Below are positions 30,447 through 60,147 of a stretch of DNA of 64,000 bases, piece by piece (position 1 is the first letter of the stretch; every line of letters begins with the position of its first letter). Source of the DNA: Candidatus Latescibacterota bacterium (GTDB lineage: Bacteria; Latescibacterota; UBA2968); the NCBI GenBank assembly GCA_965222605.1, contig OZ244960.1, positions 2,976,001 through 3,040,000 on the forward strand. Direction: 5' to 3'. A program made the translations under genes and the position numbers. A model generated the notes under the pieces. That model was not told the DNA's origin, ran no database searches, and worked only from the letters and a program-made list of their open reading frames with translations.

Positions 30447-33044
30447 GTGAACGGTGTACAACTGCGACAGCAGTTCATTCGTTCCATTCGCGCCCCCATG
30501 GTTATCGCCTGTCTATATGCCATAATGTGCATGCCAGCAGGGGCAGATCGCCTGCAGGAAAGCTTCGGTGGGGAGGAAGATTCGCTCGCTGCGGTTCTGA
30601 TCGCAGAACGCGCCGGGCCAGATAGCGCAGACGTCTATCGGGCATTGCCTCGGGATGAGAAAGCGCAATTCTTAATAGACTTTTGGCAACGGCACAATCC
30701 CGTGGTACTGCAATTTTATTACGATTATCATATCGGGCGTCGCTACCTGACGGTATCAGACGCTTTTTTTGAACGCGGTCGATTGATACCCCGGCGCTAT
30801 AAAACGCGCGCCGTACCACCAGATACCGCCCTGCTCGACGATGCTGTTGCACTATTTGAACAGATGCTACAGGACGATGCCGACAACCGCGTTGCCCTGT
30901 GCGCGCTGGGATATTGCTTGTTAGAACAGCACAAAGGTCTGGAAGCAGAACGCATTTTTGTGCGCGTTTTGGAAAAAGACCGGCGGTTTCTCATCGCGCG
31001 ACACGGCCGGGCACTGGCGTGTTTAATCCAAAAAAAACAGGTGCGCCGCGCACTGAATTTTTTTCAGGACACCGTATCTCTCGACGCGAAATACGAGGCG
31101 GCGTATTACAATTTGGCGATGTGCCACCTGGCGATGCGCAGCGTGGATATGGACCATCATTTTGGCAATGTGGTCAAGCGCTTCCCGCAACACCGCGATG
31201 CGTATTTTAAGCTGGGGATATTTTATGAATCGCTCTATTATTATGAAAAAGCCGTCAAGGCATTGTCAAAGCAGGTCGCTGTAAATCCAGCGCACAGCAT
31301 AGCAAGGGGTAGATTGGCGCGCGTGGCTATGGAATTGAAATATTTGAAACAAGAATTGCACACCACCACAGAACTGCGCGATCTCGCCCAGAAAGATCCC
31401 GAGCGTTATCTGCCACTCCTGGGCGCACAATATCTGGAATCGGGTGCGTACGAGCAGGCAGAAGCATCCTTTTCGCAATTTTTATCCCTCTTGCCGCAAA
31501 ATGAACGCGCCCTGTACGAAGATGTCACCTTGCTCCTATCGGCACAAGAATTTGAGACCTTTCGCATGATGGGAAAAGATGAGAAACGCGCATTGACCGG
31601 TTTGTTCTGGCGCAAAATAGACCCAACACCCACCACACCTGTTAATGAGCGCAGGTTGGAACACTACCGGCGCGTGAATTACGCGATACAAAACTTTTTC
31701 GAAGGCCGAATACCCTGGGATGCGCGCGGCGATGTATATATCCGTTTTGGTCATCCCGATCACAGAAGCTGGTCCGATCACCTCGTATTCGAAACCAATG
31801 CAAAAGTGATTCGGGTAAAAAATCGACTTATGGACCTCGCGGGAAATGCACTGCATGAAATCGTCCCTACAACATCGCTGCAGATAGAATCGTCTTTGGG
31901 CGCAAGCACCGTAATGAAGGTAACACCCGAGGTTCGGGGGCTGCCGATATTTCCCCTGCCGCACCAGGGAGCGTTATTTCGAGATGGCGCGTCTTTGAAC
32001 TACAAGTGGGAAACCTGGATTTACGCCCATATTGGCGAGGGATTTGAAGTGACATTTCTCGACGCCCTGGGCAATTTCGATTTTCAATTTCCCCAGCCGC
32101 CTATTGACTCGCCCAATCGATTGCTGTGGCTGCACCTCGCACCCGAAGCCGTGGTCGCACGGGTCGTCAACCGCACGCCCTCTGTTTACCGCTATCCATA
32201 TCCCGGAGATCCAATGCCGCTGCTTATGTCCGTAGCAGATTTCCAGGGAAATGGACGCGATACCCGCCTGGATGCCTTTATCGGCGTACCATGGAACGCA
32301 CTGAAAACGCAAAAACGGGGAACACAGATATCGGCTTCGGTAAATCGAATGTGGGTCCTCTTTGACGCACAGGGCACAGAAATTGCCCGCGACAGCCTGA
32401 ACACGCGAGCAACACAGCCCGAAACAGTTGACGACCCCGGCGTTTTATGGGTGGATCAGGTCACAACAGAAGTTAAACCCGGCCACTATCTAATGGCTGT
32501 GCGCGTAACCGACCCGGCTTCGGGAAAATTGCAAATTCACCGGCAACTCGTCGATGTAGAAGCATACAATGCCTCGACCCTGATGGTAAGCGACCTTGTC
32601 GTGGCGGGAAAAATTGCAACAATAGAAGCCCGTACAGAAGGCAAATTCATCCGAGACGAACTCGAAGTGCTCCCCCTGCCGTCACACACCTTTGCCCCAG
32701 AACAGCCAGTCTATCTGTACTATGAAGTGTATAACCTCTTTAGAGATGACACAGGACAAACGCATTACCGCGTGGATTATGCCGTACGCGGCAGCAAAAA
32801 TGCCGGCGCCCGGTTGCTAAAAGGCATCGGCACATTGCTGGGCATATCTGAAAAGCAAGAAGGGGTGCAAGTATCTTATGAACATCGGGGTAATACGGAA
32901 ACAGAACCCGTATATGTAGCCCTCAATGTAGCGGCAAAACCGGGACAAAAACTCACAATTGGCGTAACCGTAACCGACCTGAACCGCCCGGGAAAGCCAA
33001 CAGCGACAAAAGATATTTGGGTAGCGATAGGAAGTGAGAAGTAA
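30447..33044 (+). CDS. Exported GWxTD-like domain protein with TPRs (start GTG 30447 or ATG 30420)
   Basis: FWRKIDPTPTTPVNERRLEHYRRVNYA, PWDARGDVYIRFGHPD, C-terminal YLYYEVYNL. Confidence 0.85.
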   Translation: MNGVQLRQQFIRSIRAPMVIACLYAIMCMPAGADRLQESFGGEEDSLAAVLIAERAGPDSADVYRALPRDEKAQFLIDFWQRHNPVVLQFYYDYHIGRRYLTVSDAFFERGRLIPRRYKTRAVPPDTALLDDAVALFEQMLQDDADNRVALCALGYCLLEQHKGLEAERIFVRVLEKDRRFLIARHGRALACLIQKKQVRRALNFFQDTVSLDAKYEAAYYNLAMCHLAMRSVDMDHHFGNVVKRFPQHRDAYFKLGIFYESLYYYEKAVKALSKQVAVNPAHSIARGRLARVAMELKYLKQELHTTTELRDLAQKDPERYLPLLGAQYLESGAYEQAEASFSQFLSLLPQNERALYEDVTLLLSAQEFETFRMMGKDEKRALTGLFWRKIDPTPTTPVNERRLEHYRRVNYAIQNFFEGRIPWDARGDVYIRFGHPDHRSWSDHLVFETNAKVIRVKNRLMDLAGNALHEIVPTTSLQIESSLGASTVMKVTPEVRGLPIFPLPHQGALFRDGASLNYKWETWIYAHIGEGFEVTFLDALGNFDFQFPQPPIDSPNRLLWLHLAPEAVVARVVNRTPSVYRYPYPGDPMPLLMSVADFQGNGRDTRLDAFIGVPWNALKTQKRGTQISASVNRMWVLFDAQGTEIARDSLNTRATQPETVDDPGVLWVDQVTTEVKPGHYLMAVRVTDPASGKLQIHRQLVDVEAYNASTLMVSDLVVAGKIATIEARTEGKFIRDELEVLPLPSHTFAPEQPVYLYYEVYNLFRDDTGQTHYRVDYAVRGSKNAGARLLKGIGTLLGISEKQEGVQVSYEHRGNTETEPVYVALNVAAKPGQKLTIGVTVTDLNRPGKPTATKDIWVAIGSEK
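30451..30477 (+). repeat. 27-bp hairpin mini-element copy 1 (in frame)
   Basis: ACGGTGTACAACTGCGACAGCAGTTCA. Confidence 0.85.
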
Positions 33045-33107: not shown

Positions 33108-33142
33108 GCGGTGTACAACTGGCCGACTCTCAGGCCAGTTCA
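33108..33142 (+). repeat. 35-bp hairpin mini-element copy 2
   Basis: GCGGTGTACAACTGGCCGACTCTCAGGCCAGTTCA within the CACCCGCG/CGCGGGTG inverted repeat. Confidence 0.85.
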
Positions 33143-35511: not shown

Positions 35512-36555
35512 TTACGCAAGCACCATGTGAATAGTAGGCGCTTTGAGTTGTTGTTTCAAATAATCAGCTAACAAGCCGTATTTGACCTGATAAACGGATT
35601 GTCGTGTTTGATAGGCGACCTGTGCAAATCGCACCCAAACGAGGAAGGCACATCCGATGTGATTGCGAACAATGCGTGGCAATCGACATTGACACTTTTC
35701 AAGACCCGTCACTTGTTTTGCTTCTCGGTGAAATTGCTCAATTTTCCAACGCCAGTGACACGCCTGTTGTGCCACTTGGGTATCGTTTTGGGCCTGGTCG
35801 TTAGTCACGACATATTCCGTGCGTCTGGTAGAAGACATCACCCGAAATAATTTCACTTTATGGTCTCTTGGAAAGCCTCTGATTTTAATGCGTTTGCCAG
35901 CTTTTGTCTCGCTGACCGTCCAATCTAAGCGGTCTATGCGTTGATAGGGTTTAGCACCTGAAGAATCATCCACACGCCGATTCGATTTGAGAGGGCAGTA
36001 ATAGGTTTTTTGCAGTTTCTCAATGTGTAGCATGACCGTCCTGGTGGCATACCAGCTATCCATTAACACGGTCTGAAAAGGCAGTTTTCTGGCATAGACC
36101 AAGACAGATAACATCTCCTGTAGATGATCTAACTTGGTTTTGCCATCCCCCTCAGGGTCATAAATGCGATAGTCAATGAAAAAGAACCGATCCTGATCGG
36201 GATGAACTGCTGGCGCAGTTGTACCCCGTTCGACATAAACGCAAGTGACGACCCCGATGCCGTTGATGACCCCTTTGGCATTGCCGCTATATTGACGCCG
36301 CACCAACGCAATCTTGTGGGCATGACGCTTGTCCAGCACTGTGTCATCGAAGATCACATAGCCCTTTGGGGTCACTTGAATGTGGTCTTTGACGTGTTCC
36401 CACACCAGGCGAGGCGGGATGCGATCACCGGATAGGTAACGGTTGATCATATCATGACTGAACCTTTGGCTGTGGTCTGCGAAATGGGTCAGCGTATAGT
36501 TGATTGGACTGCTCAGCAAATACTGACAGTAATCCAAGCGGGTTGGTTTATCCAT
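35512..36555 (-). CDS. IS701-family DDE transposase
   Basis: FDDTVLDK, LMDSWY, RWKIEQFHREAKQ. Confidence 0.9.
   Translation of the reverse strand: MDKPTRLDYCQYLLSSPINYTLTHFADHSQRFSHDMINRYLSGDRIPPRLVWEHVKDHIQVTPKGYVIFDDTVLDKRHAHKIALVRRQYSGNAKGVINGIGVVTCVYVERGTTAPAVHPDQDRFFFIDYRIYDPEGDGKTKLDHLQEMLSVLVYARKLPFQTVLMDSWYATRTVMLHIEKLQKTYYCPLKSNRRVDDSSGAKPYQRIDRLDWTVSETKAGKRIKIRGFPRDHKVKLFRVMSSTRRTEYVVTNDQAQNDTQVAQQACHWRWKIEQFHREAKQVTGLEKCQCRLPRIVRNHIGCAFLVWVRFAQVAYQTRQSVYQVKYGLLADYLKQQLKAPTIHMVLA
36203..36229 (-). repeat. 27-bp hairpin mini-element copy 3 (in frame in transposase)
   Basis: Reverse complement ACGGGGTACAACTGCGCCAGCAGTTCA. Confidence 0.85.
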
Positions 36556-36674
36556 CCTCACCTCCTCGGTGCTCAGGTTAGGCTCCAATCCCGTCAATTT
36601 AAAGATTGGAAAACCTTGGGGCTATTGTTTTGCGTAAGTCCTAATAATAATAAATGGGTGATAAAAAGTGAGAG

Positions 36675-48798: not shown

Positions 48799-48825
48799 GC
48801 GGTGTACAACTGCGTCAGCAGTTCA
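48799..48825 (+). repeat. 27-bp hairpin mini-element copy 4
   Basis: GCGGTGTACAACTGCGTCAGCAGTTCA. Confidence 0.85.
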
Positions 48826-53008: not shown

Positions 53009-53127
53009 GAAAAAATGTTTTCATCTAACTCATCTATTTCTCAAGAATTTAGCTTGCCACGCGGCTCTTTTCAATTCATATTATGTTATGAAACTTTTAA
53101 ATGCGACTGACCTTTTGGGAGGGGTGT

Positions 53128-53631
53128 ATGAGGTTTGGTGAAATAATAAAACAAGCTCGTACTGGCCGATTTAGCCAGCAGGCTTTGGGTGAAAGTATTG
53201 GGGTGTGGGGCACTTATATCTATCAAATAGAAAAAGGCGAACGCATACCATCCGACGACGTGTGTACGAATCTTGCAAAAGCACTCGATCTCGATCCTCA
53301 ATTGCTTCTTTTTTTGGCGTATAAAGAACGCGCACAGAAAACAACCGAAGGCCGCAGACTTTTTACACAGATGGAAAAACTGATGACAGACCCTGTCATT
53401 AGCCAGGTAATTGCCGACCCAAAAATGCTTGACTCAGGCATTGTCAAAGCACTTCAGATTCCCAATATCCGCAAGGTACTCAAGAACAAGCAGTGGTGCG
53501 AAGCCCTGAACGCGAGTGCTTCAACTACAGACCGGGATATTCCCGAACTCATTAAGATTATCACCCAGATCCCCGCCCAACAATGGCAAGCATTGCTCAG
53601 TACAGCAAAAGCTTTTGCAGGCATAACTTGA
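53128..53631 (+). CDS. XRE-family helix-turn-helix regulator
   Basis: FGEIIKQAR..SQQALG....TYIYQIEKGERIPS...LAKAL; GGAGG RBS. Confidence 0.88.
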   Translation: MRFGEIIKQARTGRFSQQALGESIGVWGTYIYQIEKGERIPSDDVCTNLAKALDLDPQLLLFLAYKERAQKTTEGRRLFTQMEKLMTDPVISQVIADPKMLDSGIVKALQIPNIRKVLKNKQWCEALNASASTTDRDIPELIKIITQIPAQQWQALLSTAKAFAGIT

Positions 53632-53738
53632 TCATATTAATGAAATTGAGGTGTATAATTTTCTACAGGATATTTCTGAAAGAAGCCACAGAATAGCGAT
53701 TACCATTACTGGCATGGCCTGAAATCCCCATTAAAATC

Positions 53739-53777
53739 AAAAAAGCCCGTTTTCTCGCGTTGAGAAACGGGCTTTTT
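53739..53777. terminator. Bidirectional intrinsic terminator
   Basis: AAAAAGCCCGTTT...AAACGGGCTTTTT. Confidence 0.8.
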
Positions 53778-53844
53778 ACATATTCTCTCAGGTTGTGATT
53801 ATCAATAATAAGTTAATCTACACTTCTATTTACTAACTTCCTAA

Positions 53845-53860
53845 TGTTTCACGTGGAACG
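53845..53860. promoter_or_regulatory. parS site 1
   Basis: TGTTTCACGTGGAACG vs consensus TGTTTCACGTGAAACA; origin-proximal. Confidence 0.8.
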
Positions 53861-53892
53861 GTTTACAACTGGTCGCAGTCCAGACCAGTTCA
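53858..53892 (+). repeat. 35-bp hairpin mini-element copy 5 (in parS 1; supplies the rsmG stop)
   Basis: ACGGTTTACAACTGGTCGCAGTCCAGACCAGTTCA. Confidence 0.85.
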
Positions 53893-54528
53893 ACGTCTTT
53901 TAAGAAAGACAAAGGAACGTTTTCGTTCCATAAATGGTAAAGTCAAAGTGGCTTCAGTAGCATAGATGTCGCGTGGAACACCGTTTGTGAACTCGCTAAG
54001 AGCACATGGCCCTTTCATTGAAATAAGCACACCGCGGGGGGCGAGAAAAGGTTCAACCCAATTCCAGAGTTGGGGAAGCCGTGCAACTGCACGGGCTGTA
54101 CCAATCAGAAATTTACCCGCGAATGAGGAATCTCCAATAAGGTTCTCAGCGCGACTTCTGATAGCGAAAGTGCTTTGAAGGCCGAGCGCAGTAATCGTTT
54201 CCTGGAGAAAAAGGGCTTTCATGCGGGCGGGTTCGAGGAGATAAACTTCGAGGTCGGACCTCATAATCTTGATCACAATACCCGGCAGACCAGCACCCGA
54301 ACCCAAATCGAGGAGAGGTCCATCCATTGGAAGGTGCGGTACCAGCGAGAGACAATCGAGAATATGACGCTCCCATATAAAATTGCGGTCATTGCGGGAG
54401 ATCAATCGAACGCGAGCCGACCAATTGGTAAGCAAATTGACGTATTGCTGGAGCCTGACGACCTGTTCCTGAGAAAAAGAAAGGTCAAAGGACCTCTCCG
54501 CAAGCTCAATGGCCTCATTGGGTTGCAT
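53890..54528 (-). CDS. rsmG: 16S rRNA m7G527 methyltransferase
   Basis: RHILDCL, LDLGSGAGLPG, RAE, TARAVA, MKG. Confidence 0.95.
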   Translation of the reverse strand: MQPNEAIELAERSFDLSFSQEQVVRLQQYVNLLTNWSARVRLISRNDRNFIWERHILDCLSLVPHLPMDGPLLDLGSGAGLPGIVIKIMRSDLEVYLLEPARMKALFLQETITALGLQSTFAIRSRAENLIGDSSFAGKFLIGTARAVARLPQLWNWVEPFLAPRGVLISMKGPCALSEFTNGVPRDIYATEATLTLPFMERKRSFVFLKRR

Positions 54529-54575
54529 TGGATATACCTTTAGAAAGACGTAAGACGACCGCCCAACCCCTCTTA

Positions 54576-54626
54576 TGTTTCACGTGAAACGGTGTACAAC
54601 TGGTCGTTTCTCAGACCAGTTCAACA
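54576..54626. promoter_or_regulatory. parS site 2, interrupted by the mini-element
   Basis: TGTTTCACGTGAA[35 bp]ACA; excision restores perfect TGTTTCACGTGAAACA. Confidence 0.88.
54589..54623 (+). repeat. 35-bp hairpin mini-element copy 6
   Basis: ACGGTGTACAACTGGTCGTTTCTCAGACCAGTTCA. Confidence 0.88.
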
Positions 54627-55973
54627 TTATTTGCCAATGCAAAAGGTTTTGAAGATTCGATCAAGAACATCATCTGGGGTAGTCTCCCCAATGATCGCGG
54701 CAAGCGCGTCGAGTGCAACGCGGAGATCCATGGCAATAATTTCCCCTGGATTGCCGAATTCAAGGCTTTGAAGAGCCTGGGAGAGTCCCGTTGAAGCCTG
54801 TTGAAGTGCGAGAACATGCCGTTCTTTGGTAACGATCTCGTCAGGCAGGTCGCTCTTTCCCAGGAGAGTCTCGCGAAGGCGATCACGCAGGGTGGAGATG
54901 CCATCGCCTGTTTTGGCTGAAAGAATAAGTTGGGGATGGAGAGACTGAACGCTTTGCCAACCCGTGTAGATACCGAGGTCGCTCTTATTGAGAACAAGAA
55001 ATGCGTGATCAAAACGACTGATGTTGTCCAGATCCAGGGTAGATGGAGGAAGCGATCCATCTACAATATAGAGAACAATAGCTGCGCGGTCTATGAATTG
55101 TTGAGACCGACGCGTACCCTCTCGTTCCACCGGGTCGTCGGTGTCGCGAATACCAGCAGTATCAACCAGTGTCACAGTGATTCCATTGAGATCTATCTGC
55201 TCTTCAATTGTGTCCCGAGTTGTACCGGGAATATCTGTAACAATCGCGCGGTCTTCTTCAAGAAGTCGGTTAAGAAGGCTGGATTTTCCCACATTGGGTT
55301 GACCTGCGAGAGTGATGACAGCCCCTTCACGAATAATTTTTCCGCGTTCATACGAAAGAATGAGATCTTCAATATGCCTTGAAGCCTGAGAGATCGGTGG
55401 CTTAATCATCTCGACATCTATCTCTACATCCTCGGAAAAGTCTAAACCGGCTTCAAGAAGCATGGCAGCCTGACGAATAGATTCTGCCATTTTTACGAAA
55501 CGGCGATGAAGCCCTCCTCGGAGTTGAAAAAAAGCAGATTGGAGGCTCAGATCAGATTTCGCGGTGATCATATCAGAAACTGCTTCGGCCTGTGAGAGGT
55601 CTATTTTACCGTTGAGGAAAGCTCGCCTGGTAAATTCACCAGGACCAGCGGGTCGAGCACCTTCATGGAAAATTGCTTCCATAATCCGTCTGAGGAGAAA
55701 AGGTCCCCCATGACAGTTAAATTCAACCGTATCGTCGCCGGTAAAGGAATTGGGGGCGCGCATGACTGAGATCAGGATTTTGTCAAAATCCCGACCCTGA
55801 ATGTAGAGATGTCCAAAAGAAAGTTGGCGAGACGGAAGGCGGCTGAGGGCGGTTTTGCCTTTGAAGAGATGTTCTGCTATTGAGATGGCATCTGGTCCGC
55901 TGAGCCTGATGATGCCAATTGCCCCTTCACCTGGAGCAGTGGCGATTGCGGCAATGGTATCTTTGTCAGACAT
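54627..55973 (-). CDS. mnmE: tRNA modification GTPase MnmE
   Basis: DTIAAIAT, PGEFTRRAFLNGK, GQPNVGKSS, GTTRD, DTAG, FCIGK. Confidence 0.98.
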   Translation of the reverse strand: MSDKDTIAAIATAPGEGAIGIIRLSGPDAISIAEHLFKGKTALSRLPSRQLSFGHLYIQGRDFDKILISVMRAPNSFTGDDTVEFNCHGGPFLLRRIMEAIFHEGARPAGPGEFTRRAFLNGKIDLSQAEAVSDMITAKSDLSLQSAFFQLRGGLHRRFVKMAESIRQAAMLLEAGLDFSEDVEIDVEMIKPPISQASRHIEDLILSYERGKIIREGAVITLAGQPNVGKSSLLNRLLEEDRAIVTDIPGTTRDTIEEQIDLNGITVTLVDTAGIRDTDDPVEREGTRRSQQFIDRAAIVLYIVDGSLPPSTLDLDNISRFDHAFLVLNKSDLGIYTGWQSVQSLHPQLILSAKTGDGISTLRDRLRETLLGKSDLPDEIVTKERHVLALQQASTGLSQALQSLEFGNPGEIIAMDLRVALDALAAIIGETTPDDVLDRIFKTFCIGK

Positions 55974-58764: not shown

Positions 58765-60147
58765 ATGGATGAACGCTCTTCTAACTTATGGAACCGGTGT
58801 CTCCACGCCATCCAGGAAAAAATACAGGATCAAAGTTTTGAAACCTGGTTCGCTCCTATTACGGCGCGGCAATTTACCTCTGAAGAAGCTATTCTGGTGG
58901 TGCCAGAGAGAATTTATGCCGATTGGTTAGAACAAAATTACATCGGGTTGATCAAAACGACCATCCAGGAAGTCTTCACATGGAATCCGCGGATAACTTT
59001 TACGGTTGGTAATACTCATCAACAGATGTCATCTCCTGTGACACATGGTCCCGAATTTATGCACGGAGCACCTCTCGATTCCGTATCTGCGGTGCCATCT
59101 CTTCATCCTGGACCTGTCCAACCTGTATTTCCTCTGAATCCACGCTACCGGTTTGACAATTTTGTTGTCGGTGACAGCAATGAGGTGTCGTTTTCGGCAG
59201 CAAAAGCCACAGCAGAGTTACCTGGACAAACAGCTTTTAATCCCCTTGTCCTTTATAGCGGCGTTGGATTGGGAAAAACCCACCTGTTACAGGCCATTGG
59301 TGCATACTGTATCGAAATGGGGACAGCTCAACGGGTAGTTTATGTTACTGCACAACAGTTTCTTACAGATTATTTAGAAGGAATCAATCGCGGAACAACC
59401 TCTAATTTCTATCAAACCTATCGCCAGGCGGATGTGTTGCTGGTTGATGACATCCAGTATTATGTGAAAACCGAAGGTTGCCAAAGAGAGTTTATCCATA
59501 CATTTAATGCCCTATTTCAAGCAGATAAACAGATCATCATCAGCTCTGATCGTCCGCCGTCTCATCTCAAGGGGTTTGAAGATCGGTTGATTTCTCGGTT
59601 TCAATGGGGTTTGGTTACAAATATCGAAGCACCAGACCTTCCCACGCGTGTGGCGATTTTAATGCAAAAAGCAGAAGAAATGGGCGTTTCATTGTCCCAC
59701 GAAATTGCGAGTTTCTTAGCTGAACAGATCGATACCAATATACGCGAACTTGAAGGTGCATTAAAACGCCTGGTGGCCTTTACCAAATTACAACGCTATC
59801 CACTCACGATTGAAACAGCGCGAAAGACGCTGCTAAGTCCGCCCCAAAAGACCAAACCGACTGTTACTATTGAGAGCATTCAAAAAGCTGCAGCCCACTT
59901 TTTTGAAATACCTTTAGATAAACTGGTGGGTACAACCCGAAAGCAAGATGTGGCAACAGCCCGGCATGTGAGTATGTATTTGAGCAAATCTCTTACAGGT
60001 GCTCCACTCAAGACCATTGGTGTGCAATTTGGAAATCGCGATCACAGCACAGTTATTCACGCCTGCCGGAGAGTAGAGAGCAAAATATCGTCGGATCCAG
60101 AATTCGAACATCTTGTAAGTGAACTACAAGATCATATCGTAGGTTAA
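58765..60147 (+). CDS. dnaA: Chromosomal replication initiator DnaA
   Basis: LNPRYRFDNFVVG, FNPL, GVGLGKTHL, DDIQ, RLISRF.WG, RELEGAL, RDHSTVIHA. Confidence 0.98.
   Translation: MDERSSNLWNRCLHAIQEKIQDQSFETWFAPITARQFTSEEAILVVPERIYADWLEQNYIGLIKTTIQEVFTWNPRITFTVGNTHQQMSSPVTHGPEFMHGAPLDSVSAVPSLHPGPVQPVFPLNPRYRFDNFVVGDSNEVSFSAAKATAELPGQTAFNPLVLYSGVGLGKTHLLQAIGAYCIEMGTAQRVVYVTAQQFLTDYLEGINRGTTSNFYQTYRQADVLLVDDIQYYVKTEGCQREFIHTFNALFQADKQIIISSDRPPSHLKGFEDRLISRFQWGLVTNIEAPDLPTRVAILMQKAEEMGVSLSHEIASFLAEQIDTNIRELEGALKRLVAFTKLQRYPLTIETARKTLLSPPQKTKPTVTIESIQKAAAHFFEIPLDKLVGTTRKQDVATARHVSMYLSKSLTGAPLKTIGVQFGNRDHSTVIHACRRVESKISSDPEFEHLVSELQDHIVG

Follow-up and report, generated by a model that had tools for sequence, protein, structure and literature searches.

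A REP-like hairpin mini-element in both predicted origin-proximal parS sites of a Candidatus Latescibacterota genome

How does a short repeat come to occupy the partition sites of a bacterial chromosome, and do the sites survive it? The question is raised by 64,000 nucleotides of DNA from a Candidatus Latescibacterota bacterium (the window, which is C1:2,976,001-3,040,000 of the single 6.34-Mb contig of the genome under study, G000), where two copies of a 35-nucleotide (nt) hairpin repeat, here called the mini-element, lie inside two 16-base-pair (bp) parS-like palindromes on either side of rsmG. G000 was compared with the 20 other genomes of its genus (21 in total), all of which have the syntenic locus, and with 32 genomes from ten other genera of the order. 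The explanation that we favor, and hold to be somewhat better than an even bet, is that a mini-element resembling repetitive extragenic palindromic (REP) sequences was inserted into both parS sites in the ancestor of the crown clade of the genus and was tolerated there, and that decay, nesting, replacement, and further occupancy of parS arms followed.

At site 1, TGTTTCACGTGGA (53845-53857) is followed by a 35-nt insert (53858-53892) and then by ACG (53893-53895). At site 2, TGTTTCACGTGAA (54576-54588) precedes the insert (54589-54623), which is followed by ACA (54624-54626). The inserts read AC GGTTTAC AACTGGTC GCAGTCCA GACCAGTT CA and AC GGTGTAC AACTGGTC GTTTCTCA GACCAGTT CA, respectively, and the general plan of the element is RY-GGTGTAC, an 8-bp stem, an 8-nt loop, the second strand of the stem, and CA. 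Folded as DNA, both parS hairpins have a predicted energy of -6.7 kcal/mol, with z scores of -3.8 and -3.1. The parts of the two sites are as follows:

53845..53860, no strand assigned: parS site 1, present reading TGTTTCACGTGGAACG; bases 1 to 13 are original and bases 14 to 16 are the element's first three bases.
53858..53892, plus strand: mini-element copy 1, 35 nt; tail GGTTTAC, stem 53867-53874, loop GCAGTCCA at 53875-53882, stem 53883-53890, CA.
53893..53895, no strand assigned: ACG, the displaced original parS bases 14 to 16 of site 1 (filled in G000, empty in G001, G010, G016, and G018).
54576..54591, no strand assigned: parS site 2, present reading TGTTTCACGTGAAACG; one mismatch to the consensus.
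54589..54623, plus strand: mini-element copy 2, 35 nt; tail GGTGTAC, stem 54598-54605, loop GTTTCTCA at 54606-54613, stem 54614-54621, CA.
54624..54626, no strand assigned: ACA, the displaced original parS bases 14 to 16 of site 2; abuts the mnmE stop codon.

An earlier note, made from the sequence of the window, had placed the insertion after base 13 at both sites; this position is favored by empty sites in relatives and by tandem arrays (see below). The sequence likewise agrees with the note in that the two inserts have different loops and unrelated outer flanks and are each bordered by AAC on both sides. Because the element starts with AC-G, the parS 16-mer is rebuilt at the junction, unchanged at site 1 and with an A-to-G change at position 16 of site 2, and the note's description of it as largely regenerated holds.

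Are the two palindromes parS? The present 16-mers have two mismatches (site 1) and one mismatch (site 2) to the published 16-bp consensus, that is, 14-15/16 matches. In the genome-wide listing of parS sites that the earlier note had proposed, a scan of G000 at up to two mismatches to the palindromic consensus returned seven sites, and a CACGTG core was present only in sites 1 and 2, both of which are filled. One further site has a CACGCG core and lies 480 kb away, and the 21 sites found at three mismatches are about the chance level. The pair flanks rsmG, approximately 4 to 5 kb from dnaA. Across the 21 genus genomes, the strict core pattern detects zero to two sites each (two in 17 genomes, one in 3, and none in 1), always the pair around rsmG; the missed sites are CATGTG or CACATG variants at the same places, and when core variants are counted, the pair flanks rsmG in 21/21 genomes. 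A profile search of G000 gave a single ParB_N match, to a ParB (TIGR00180, 190 bits) encoded adjacent to a gene for a ParA-type ATPase. Judged by the consensus match, the conserved origin-proximal position, and the encoded ParB and ParA, the pair flanking rsmG is predicted to be the chromosomal parS.

The parA-parB genes themselves are located at 5,239,848-5,241,504 of G000 (L004), approximately 2.2 Mb away from the origin and the two parS sites. Three other 16-mers of G000 (at 156,478; 165,134; and 5,470,272) have perfect parS arms with the central CG replaced by AA, TA, or TT. Those at 156,478 and 165,134 are 8.7 kb apart and are followed by a common repeat (GTGTCATATGACACAGTTGGGA...). These CG-less 16-mers may serve a different partition system or mark the ends of an integrated element.

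Did parS precede the inserts? G001, G010, G016, and G018 lack the insert at both sites, and G019 lacks it at site 2. The empty 16-mer joins directly the flank that follows the element in G000: site 1 of G001 reads TGTTTCACGTGAAACG and then the rsmG-side flank, and site 2 of G001, G010, and G019 reads TGTTTCACGTGAAACA followed directly by TTATTTGCC or CTATTTGCC. The net insertion in filled relative to empty congeners is exactly 35 nt at both sites. The inspection of sister metagenome-assembled genomes (MAGs), another proposal of the earlier note, thus revealed real insertions into pre-existing parS. Because the sites exist empty in these basal species, parS is older than the inserts and the two loci do not derive from one local duplication, a possibility that the note had raised. 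In G018 (L150), empty site 2 is followed by a 10-nt near-duplicate of the parS right arm (CCGTGAAACA), which could be slippage or a footprint.

In a tree of mnmE, the four species with both sites empty are basal and the other 17 form a clade with 100/100 support. Within this crown clade, the right arm is filled in 17/17 species at site 1 and in 16/17 at site 2 (33/34 sites). The tree requires one change at site 1, one or two at site 2 (the position of G019 inside the crown clade is not fixed by mnmE), and four at the left arm. On this phylogenetic reading, both insertions are old and date to the ancestor of the 17-species clade; they are not recent hits in G000. In four crown species, an extra, inverted copy occupies the mirror position on the left arm of site 1: G008 gained 35 nt cleanly and kept its flank, G004 shows a flank deletion beside the copy, and G007 and G017 have composites. 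Contigs of a near-identical strain from four other studies show both sites filled, although contigs drop rare variants and so are uninformative on rare empty alleles. One public run (X12, compared over window positions 53600-54900) contains the near-identical strain together with a G019-type relative at higher depth, in which site 2 is empty and site 1 has a nested copy, so that the sample contains two species of the genus.

The exact boundary of the insert has to be read from more than parS, where the repeated AAC permits a cut anywhere from between bases 13 and 14 to between bases 16 and 17. Where copies interrupt tandem 8-mer arrays, the array stays in phase only with RY...CA as the unit. 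A clean empty site, in the comparison of L028/L106 with G000 (at approximately 5,082,470), gives 35 nt inserted at ...GAA/TCA... (the slash marks the junction). Together, these favor the boundary between bases 13 and 14. A cut between bases 15 and 16, drawn from a nested copy that made GGTGTAC...CA a unit of 33 to 34 nt, was superseded by the empty sites and arrays, which give 35 nt with RY in front. Filled/empty pairs (parS, L028/L106, L045, and an IS256-like gene) contain no target duplication beyond 0 to 3 nt of ambiguity. An 8-bp target duplication, suggested by the tandem 8-mer flanks, was rejected on the empty parS sites, and a 2-nt common core at both junctions, in the style of site-specific recombination, was dismissed, since in most copies the left RY does not match the two bases on the right.

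Among 111 de-duplicated copies, GGTGTAC is preceded by G (75), G (77), A (83), R (102), and C (89), the stem is followed by C in 109/111 and then A in 111/111, and the tail has G at positions 2 and 4 in 110/111 copies each. These counts suggest that the element lands after G-R-A, in one orientation and without clear target duplication, and each parS arm offers such a motif (GTGAA/AC).

What did the insertions cost the host? The 14-nt parS core is intact at 34/34 crown sites. The hairpin is in register at only 8/33 filled right arms, the rest being truncated, interrupted by two other mini-elements, or 5 nt shorter through a slippage deletion that recurs. A core that is kept beside decaying hairpins points to purifying selection on parS and to a neutral insert. 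Site 1 originally overlapped the end of rsmG, since RsmG of G001 ends in ...FVFLQRRFT with its stop codon inside parS. In G000 the protein ends in ...FVFLKRR, with TGA taken from the terminal TCA of the element, and the insertion removed only two C-terminal residues. With the 16-mer rebuilt and RsmG shortened by no more than this, the insertion looks tolerated, in keeping with the earlier note's near-neutral landing site by the origin.

Two side observations concern the parS loci of relatives. In the crown species G020, G002, G012, and G013, site 1 reads TGTTCCACGTGGAACG, with T changed to C at position 5 and A to G at position 12; as both positions have changed, the symmetry of the palindrome is restored. 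Two further mini-elements are nested in parS-linked copies (L006-L023). One begins with TGAAGGCGAGTGAGC, always after GGTGTA of the tail, and also interrupts the G000 copies at 3,361,132 and 5,819,377; the other (TCCCGTGAGGGTTCTACACGGG...) sits in the loop.

Is the mini-element specific to this locus? A census of G000 requiring the tail and a perfect stem gave 64 copies: 29 long ones (8-bp stem and 8-nt loop), 28 short relatives (27 nt, stem AACTGC/GCAGTT), and 7 other forms. A pattern with a free inner stem matched 25 copies, and 22/25 inner stems, of five stem types, are perfectly paired; the inner stem thus covaries. The family is present in 21/21 genus genomes, at 4 to 110 copies each (541 in total), and in 0/32 genomes of the other genera. 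The reversed pattern, used as a control, had 0 matches, and in a public scan, 108/108 matches were Candidatus Latescibacterota MAGs. Many copies in G004 have an identical core, which indicates recent spread. G014, whose mnmE is approximately 97% identical to that of G000, has 110 copies compared with 25 in G000, and bursts in copy number mark G014, G008, G020, and G004, in contrast to G018, G010, and G001. Six of the 64 G000 copies are in the window, three long copies and three short-hairpin relatives, and two of the six are in parS, as the earlier note had counted. The other four are:

33108..33142, plus strand: third long copy, stem AACTGGCC/GGCCAGTT; set in a short palindrome.
30451..30477, plus strand: short-hairpin relative, 27 nt; same tail, 6-bp stem AACTGC/GCAGTT, 4-nt loop, CA.
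36203..36229, minus strand: short-hairpin relative, in frame inside a DDE transposase open reading frame (ORF).
48799..48825, plus strand: short-hairpin relative, from the census of tail and perfect stem.

Six G000 copies are located within 50 kb of the origin (2,975,405-3,030,623), all away from the dnaA side, compared with 1.0 expected (Poisson P = 6e-4). The family inhabits tandem 7- and 8-mer arrays, short palindromes, hairpins of a GTAG-tagged REP family, the loops of its own members, and two transposase genes. At 4,034,018-4,034,088 of G000, one element is placed inside the loop of another in the opposite orientation. The relative at 36203-36229 supplies nine codons in frame to the DDE_5/DDE_Tnp_1 transposase ORF at 35512-36597 (minus strand) of the window, and the 1.15-kb transposase unit containing it is present twice in G000 (3,011,506-3,012,654 and 3,723,167-3,724,314) at 99.8% identity. 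The IS256-like transposase gene has four paralogues filled by a long element at the same codon, with a net insertion of 34 nt and a frameshift (310,959-310,997; 1,451,461-1,451,499; 2,043,738-2,043,776; and 3,719,622-3,719,660), and four empty ones, which have diverged to 78-86% identity. Because all four filled copies are interrupted at one codon, the insertion sequence (IS) multiplied after it had been hit.

Could two of the copies have met parS by chance? As a null, the four parS arm positions were set against approximately 410,000 G-R-A sites, or against the 39,500 outside long ORFs. For 29 to 64 copies, the probability of at least two parS hits is 4e-8 to 2e-5 with a G-R-A target and 2e-7 to 9e-5 with an AAC target, so that the comparison with chance that the earlier note had asked for came out as an excess. 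With all 541 genus copies counted as independent events and 3-nt targets, it is 1e-5 to 6e-3. The most generous null (a 5-nt target, GTGRA or GRAAC, in non-ORF space and 541 independent events) gives P = 0.26 for two hits and P = 4e-3 for five or more. We regard this last null as unrealistic. The enrichment in parS is real if the events are independent, and independence is its weak point. The preference for palindromes that the earlier note had proposed fared less well: palindromes spanning the junction, with stems of at least 6 bp, occur at 10/111 junctions and 132/3000 controls, an approximately twofold difference in a rough test whose controls were genome-wide, mostly coding G-R-A sites.

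The favored explanation would combine these results as follows. Two chromosomal parS sites, fixed in the genus, lie around rsmG by the origin. In the ancestor of the 17-species crown clade, a 35-nt REP-like hairpin repeat specific to the genus would have entered each site between bases 13 and 14, landing after the G-R-A that each arm offers. Its AC-G start would have rebuilt the 16-mer to 14-15/16 matches, and RsmG would have taken its stop codon from the element. From then on, parS would have stayed under purifying selection while the neighboring elements decayed, received nested inserts, or were replaced. The later filling of the left arm at site 1 in four species and the replacement of copies may reflect renewed insertion, homology-assisted copying between arms and sites, or both, and the mode of spread is in this sense inferred.

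Several observations weigh against this explanation. Searches for RAYT-like genes (REP-associated tyrosine transposases) and for Y1_Tnp yielded no mobilizing enzyme. RAYT-like genes, searched with a protein query, were present in only 9/21 genus genomes; 12/17 RAYT-like loci are flanked by GTAG repeats, and only one (L135) has the mini-element nearby. The Pfam model Y1_Tnp, searched in five genomes, was not found in the high-copy genomes G004, G014, and G020 (43 to 110 copies), although this model is less sensitive for RAYT-like genes than the protein query (G014 and G020), and G004 had no match by either. The net insert is 34 to 36 nt at other loci: 34 nt for a copy in the loop of another copy and in the IS256-like gene, and 36 nt at L045. 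At position -4, filled sites tend to carry G and the corresponding empty sites and array units A, a difference that simple cut-and-insert fails to explain; it is seen at position 12 of parS in most crown sites, within the IS gene (GAA to GGG), and in arrays of 8-mers and 7-mers. ParB binding to the rebuilt sites is suggested solely by conservation of their core. G-R-A alone, with approximately 40,000 non-ORF sites, cannot explain five or more hits on four arms, and something beyond it, whether homology, structure, or ParB, is needed. As to the change at position -4, it suggests microhomology between the target and the GGARC left flank of the family, which the parS arm resembles, such that the incoming DNA overlaps two or three target bases and puts its own in their place.

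Two kinds of enzyme encoded in G000 were considered as mobilizers, and neither is supported by its sequence context. One of its two RAYT-like genes is flanked by, and contains, GTAG-tagged REPs, and the other is without an adjacent repeat; RAYT was set aside because the flanks of these genes carry this different repeat. The single IS200-type TnpA has end hairpins unrelated to the mini-element. The GTAG-tagged REP family (GTAGGGGCG... hairpins) is a separate one. It flanks RAYT-like genes at L003 (1245-1890; approximately 3.942 Mb of G000) and L136-L149, has one copy inside a RAYT ORF, and forms tandem arrays with a 37-nt period in G019 (L136).

What else could have filled both sites? The parS palindromes may themselves have attracted the element, either because the ParB-parS complex recruits it or because parS, as a hairpin or cruciform near the origin, exposes a target. 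What speaks for such targeting is the number of separate occupancies of parS arms, which is no fewer than three on clean cases and probably five or six (the right arms of both sites, the clean left arm in G008, and the left arms in G004, G007, and G017), and five or more hits have P of at most 4e-3 even under the most generous null. The excess of copies near the origin of G000 persists without the parS pair (4 versus 1.0 expected, P = 0.02), and some REP families are reported to lie inside palindromes (PMC3733652). Yet the four basal species carry the element (4 to 16 copies) with parS empty, junction-spanning palindromes are only about twofold enriched, and the insertion is off-center in the palindrome. 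A route through the replication fork or single-stranded DNA predicts a replichore strand bias, but none was found in G000 (33/64, P = 0.90), and the full position lists of two relatives, G004 and G015, contain no origin-side excess. On balance, insertion directed by the centromere is doubtful, and the stronger form of the idea, in which the centromere is a homing beacon where the ParB-parS complex or an extruded palindrome directs repeated insertion and the first bases of the element restore the site, appears quite unlikely. The targeting that the earlier note had proposed is thus partly supported, in that the hits are above chance and recurrent; the events are old, however, and partly explicable by copying between arms.

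Copying could even account for all of the parS occupancy, if one chance insertion was followed by gene conversion or template switching to the other site and arms through the 13 to 16 bp of parS homology, without any targeting. A single chance hit is unremarkable, with 0.05 to 1 expected among up to 541 events. In G008, position 16 of parS is a private T at both sites, which also have the tail TTTTTAC in common; the rare tail GTTTTAC (consensus GGTGTAC) recurs at site 1, at site 2, and in the G004 left arm; and one composite with a second nested mini-element is found on three different arms in different species. The shared private base, rare tails, and recurrent composite indicate concerted evolution between parS arms, as judged from sequence comparison. 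The change from GGTGTAC to GTTTTAC also raises the complementarity of the tail to the adjacent parS arm and may resemble quasi-palindrome correction. On the other side, the homology beyond the insert is merely AC and a few scattered bases, the outer flanks being unrelated; the left- and right-arm copies of G004 differ in stems and loops; and the G008 left-arm copy is a clean 35-nt insertion with its flank preserved. The site-1 loop of G000, GCAGTCCA, is the commonest of the family and differs at 3/8 positions from GTATCCCA of the nearest relatives, G014 and G004. Since mnmE is 94-97% identical between these two and G000, the differing loop places the source of the G000 site-1 copy outside the locus. 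Copying as the sole means of spread is an unlikely account. A local duplication is excluded, but the full independence of the two insertions, which the earlier note had suggested, is doubtful, since the private base of G008 and the recurrent rare tails point to copying between arms. Finally, the hairpins might be kept for a function, such as ending or stabilizing the mnmE and rsmG transcripts or bounding a ParB loading site. Both copies are at most 3 nt from the mnmE or rsmG stop codon or supply it, occupancy persists at 33/34 crown sites, and REPs are said to stabilize mRNA (PMC3733652). That only 8/33 filled sites keep the hairpin in register reflects decay and not conservation, no T-run follows the hairpin, and G019 at site 2 and the basal species at both sites do without the element, which makes co-option very improbable.

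To which known class does the mini-element belong? PMC3733652 describes REPs and bacterial interspersed mosaic elements (BIMEs) as forming mosaics with other small repeats, with families lodged in palindromes and in-frame copies inside genes. The mini-element shares these habits (mosaics, occasional in-frame genic copies, palindromes) and the anatomy: 20 to 40 nt, one hairpin with a covarying stem, a short single-stranded tag that is conserved and one-sided, and, in each genome, several subfamilies that differ in stem and loop. It is a short covarying hairpin present in many, mainly intergenic copies. It differs in its tag, which is GGTGTAC rather than GTAG or CGTC; in that copies are mostly single, unlike REPINs, with doublets only around parS in some species; in that the RAYT-like genes of the genus are flanked by the separate GTAG-tagged repeat; and in its target here, a chromosomal centromere site.

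Miniature elements of the IS200/IS605 group resemble the mini-element in orientation-specific insertion by a short conserved flank without clear target duplication, in possessing a hairpin, and in the insertion of one copy into the loop of another hairpin. Here, however, there is one hairpin per 35-nt unit instead of subterminal hairpins at both ends, replichore strand bias is absent, Y1_Tnp was not found in G004, G014, and G020, and the adjacent bases change (A to G at -4), which peel-and-paste does not predict. At the left flank, G-G-A-R-C is present in 75 to 102 of 111 copies per position; the filled/empty pairs show no duplication longer than 3 nt, the insert varies from 34 to 36 nt, and flank bases change. 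A classical miniature inverted-repeat transposable element was rejected because the ends, RYGGTGTAC and CA, are not inverted repeats and the empty parS sites exclude an 8-bp duplication. An integron attC site, suggested by a stem that starts with AAC and ends with GTT, was considered and dropped since the hairpin is too short and too perfect. The mini-element therefore appears, from anatomy and habit, to be REP-like with a new tag, and we class it neither with the RAYT-REPs nor with the derivatives of IS200/IS605.

Mobile DNA that lands in a short structured or palindromic host repeat is known from ISs aimed at REPs or palindromes. Those are full ISs with transposase genes that land in REPs, whereas in the present case the mobile DNA is itself a 35-nt REP-like repeat and its landing place is a palindrome with a function in the host. 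In many bacteria, parAB lies beside rsmG. The system studied here resembles chromosomal ParABS in its consensus matches, its origin-proximal position next to rsmG, and its canonical ParB and ParA; it differs in the distance of parAB from the origin, in having only two sites, in the original overlap of site 1 with the rsmG frame, and in the splitting of both sites by a mobile repeat. A narrow literature search (parS/ParB with REPs, and Latescibacteria repeats) found no published repeat element inside a chromosomal parS.

If parS arms are preferred, the locus would be a natural example of a mobile repeat harbored in an essential, unlosable host site and a natural test of ParB tolerance: parS has exchanged T for C at position 1 and A for G at positions 12 and 16, and a hairpin directly adjoins it (0 nt); these end-base and flank changes have been retained over the lifetime of 17 species. 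If the homing beacon were true, it would be a prokaryotic counterpart of centromere-targeted transposons, with a safe, origin-proximal, never-deleted harbor. If copying were the explanation, ordinary repeat insertion would have been followed by an instructive case of concerted evolution around a palindrome. A new, cleanly bounded hairpin repeat family in one Latescibacterota genus, with recent bursts, is moreover a good case for a new mobilization route.

The genes next to the two sites follow the order dnaA, yidC, mnmE, and rsmG from 60147 down to 53890 of the window, and the cumulative GC-skew minimum at approximately 3.05 Mb of G000 identifies the window as the origin region. The annotated neighbors are:

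58765..60147, plus strand: dnaA (Pfam Bac_DnaA), which marks the origin region.
54627..55973, minus strand: mnmE (trmE; Pfam MnmE_helical, TrmE_N, and MMR_HSR1); its stop codon adjoins the original parS site 2.
53890..54528, minus strand: rsmG (gidB; Pfam GidB, 1.1e-37), with its TGA stop at 53890-53892.

A search of Rfam returned no family that matches the mini-element, and the only weak matches, at 53736-53839, fall on a strong terminator-like hairpin. This hairpin (53741-53778) is flanked by A and T runs and is located between a helix-turn-helix gene (53101-53631) and parS site 1.

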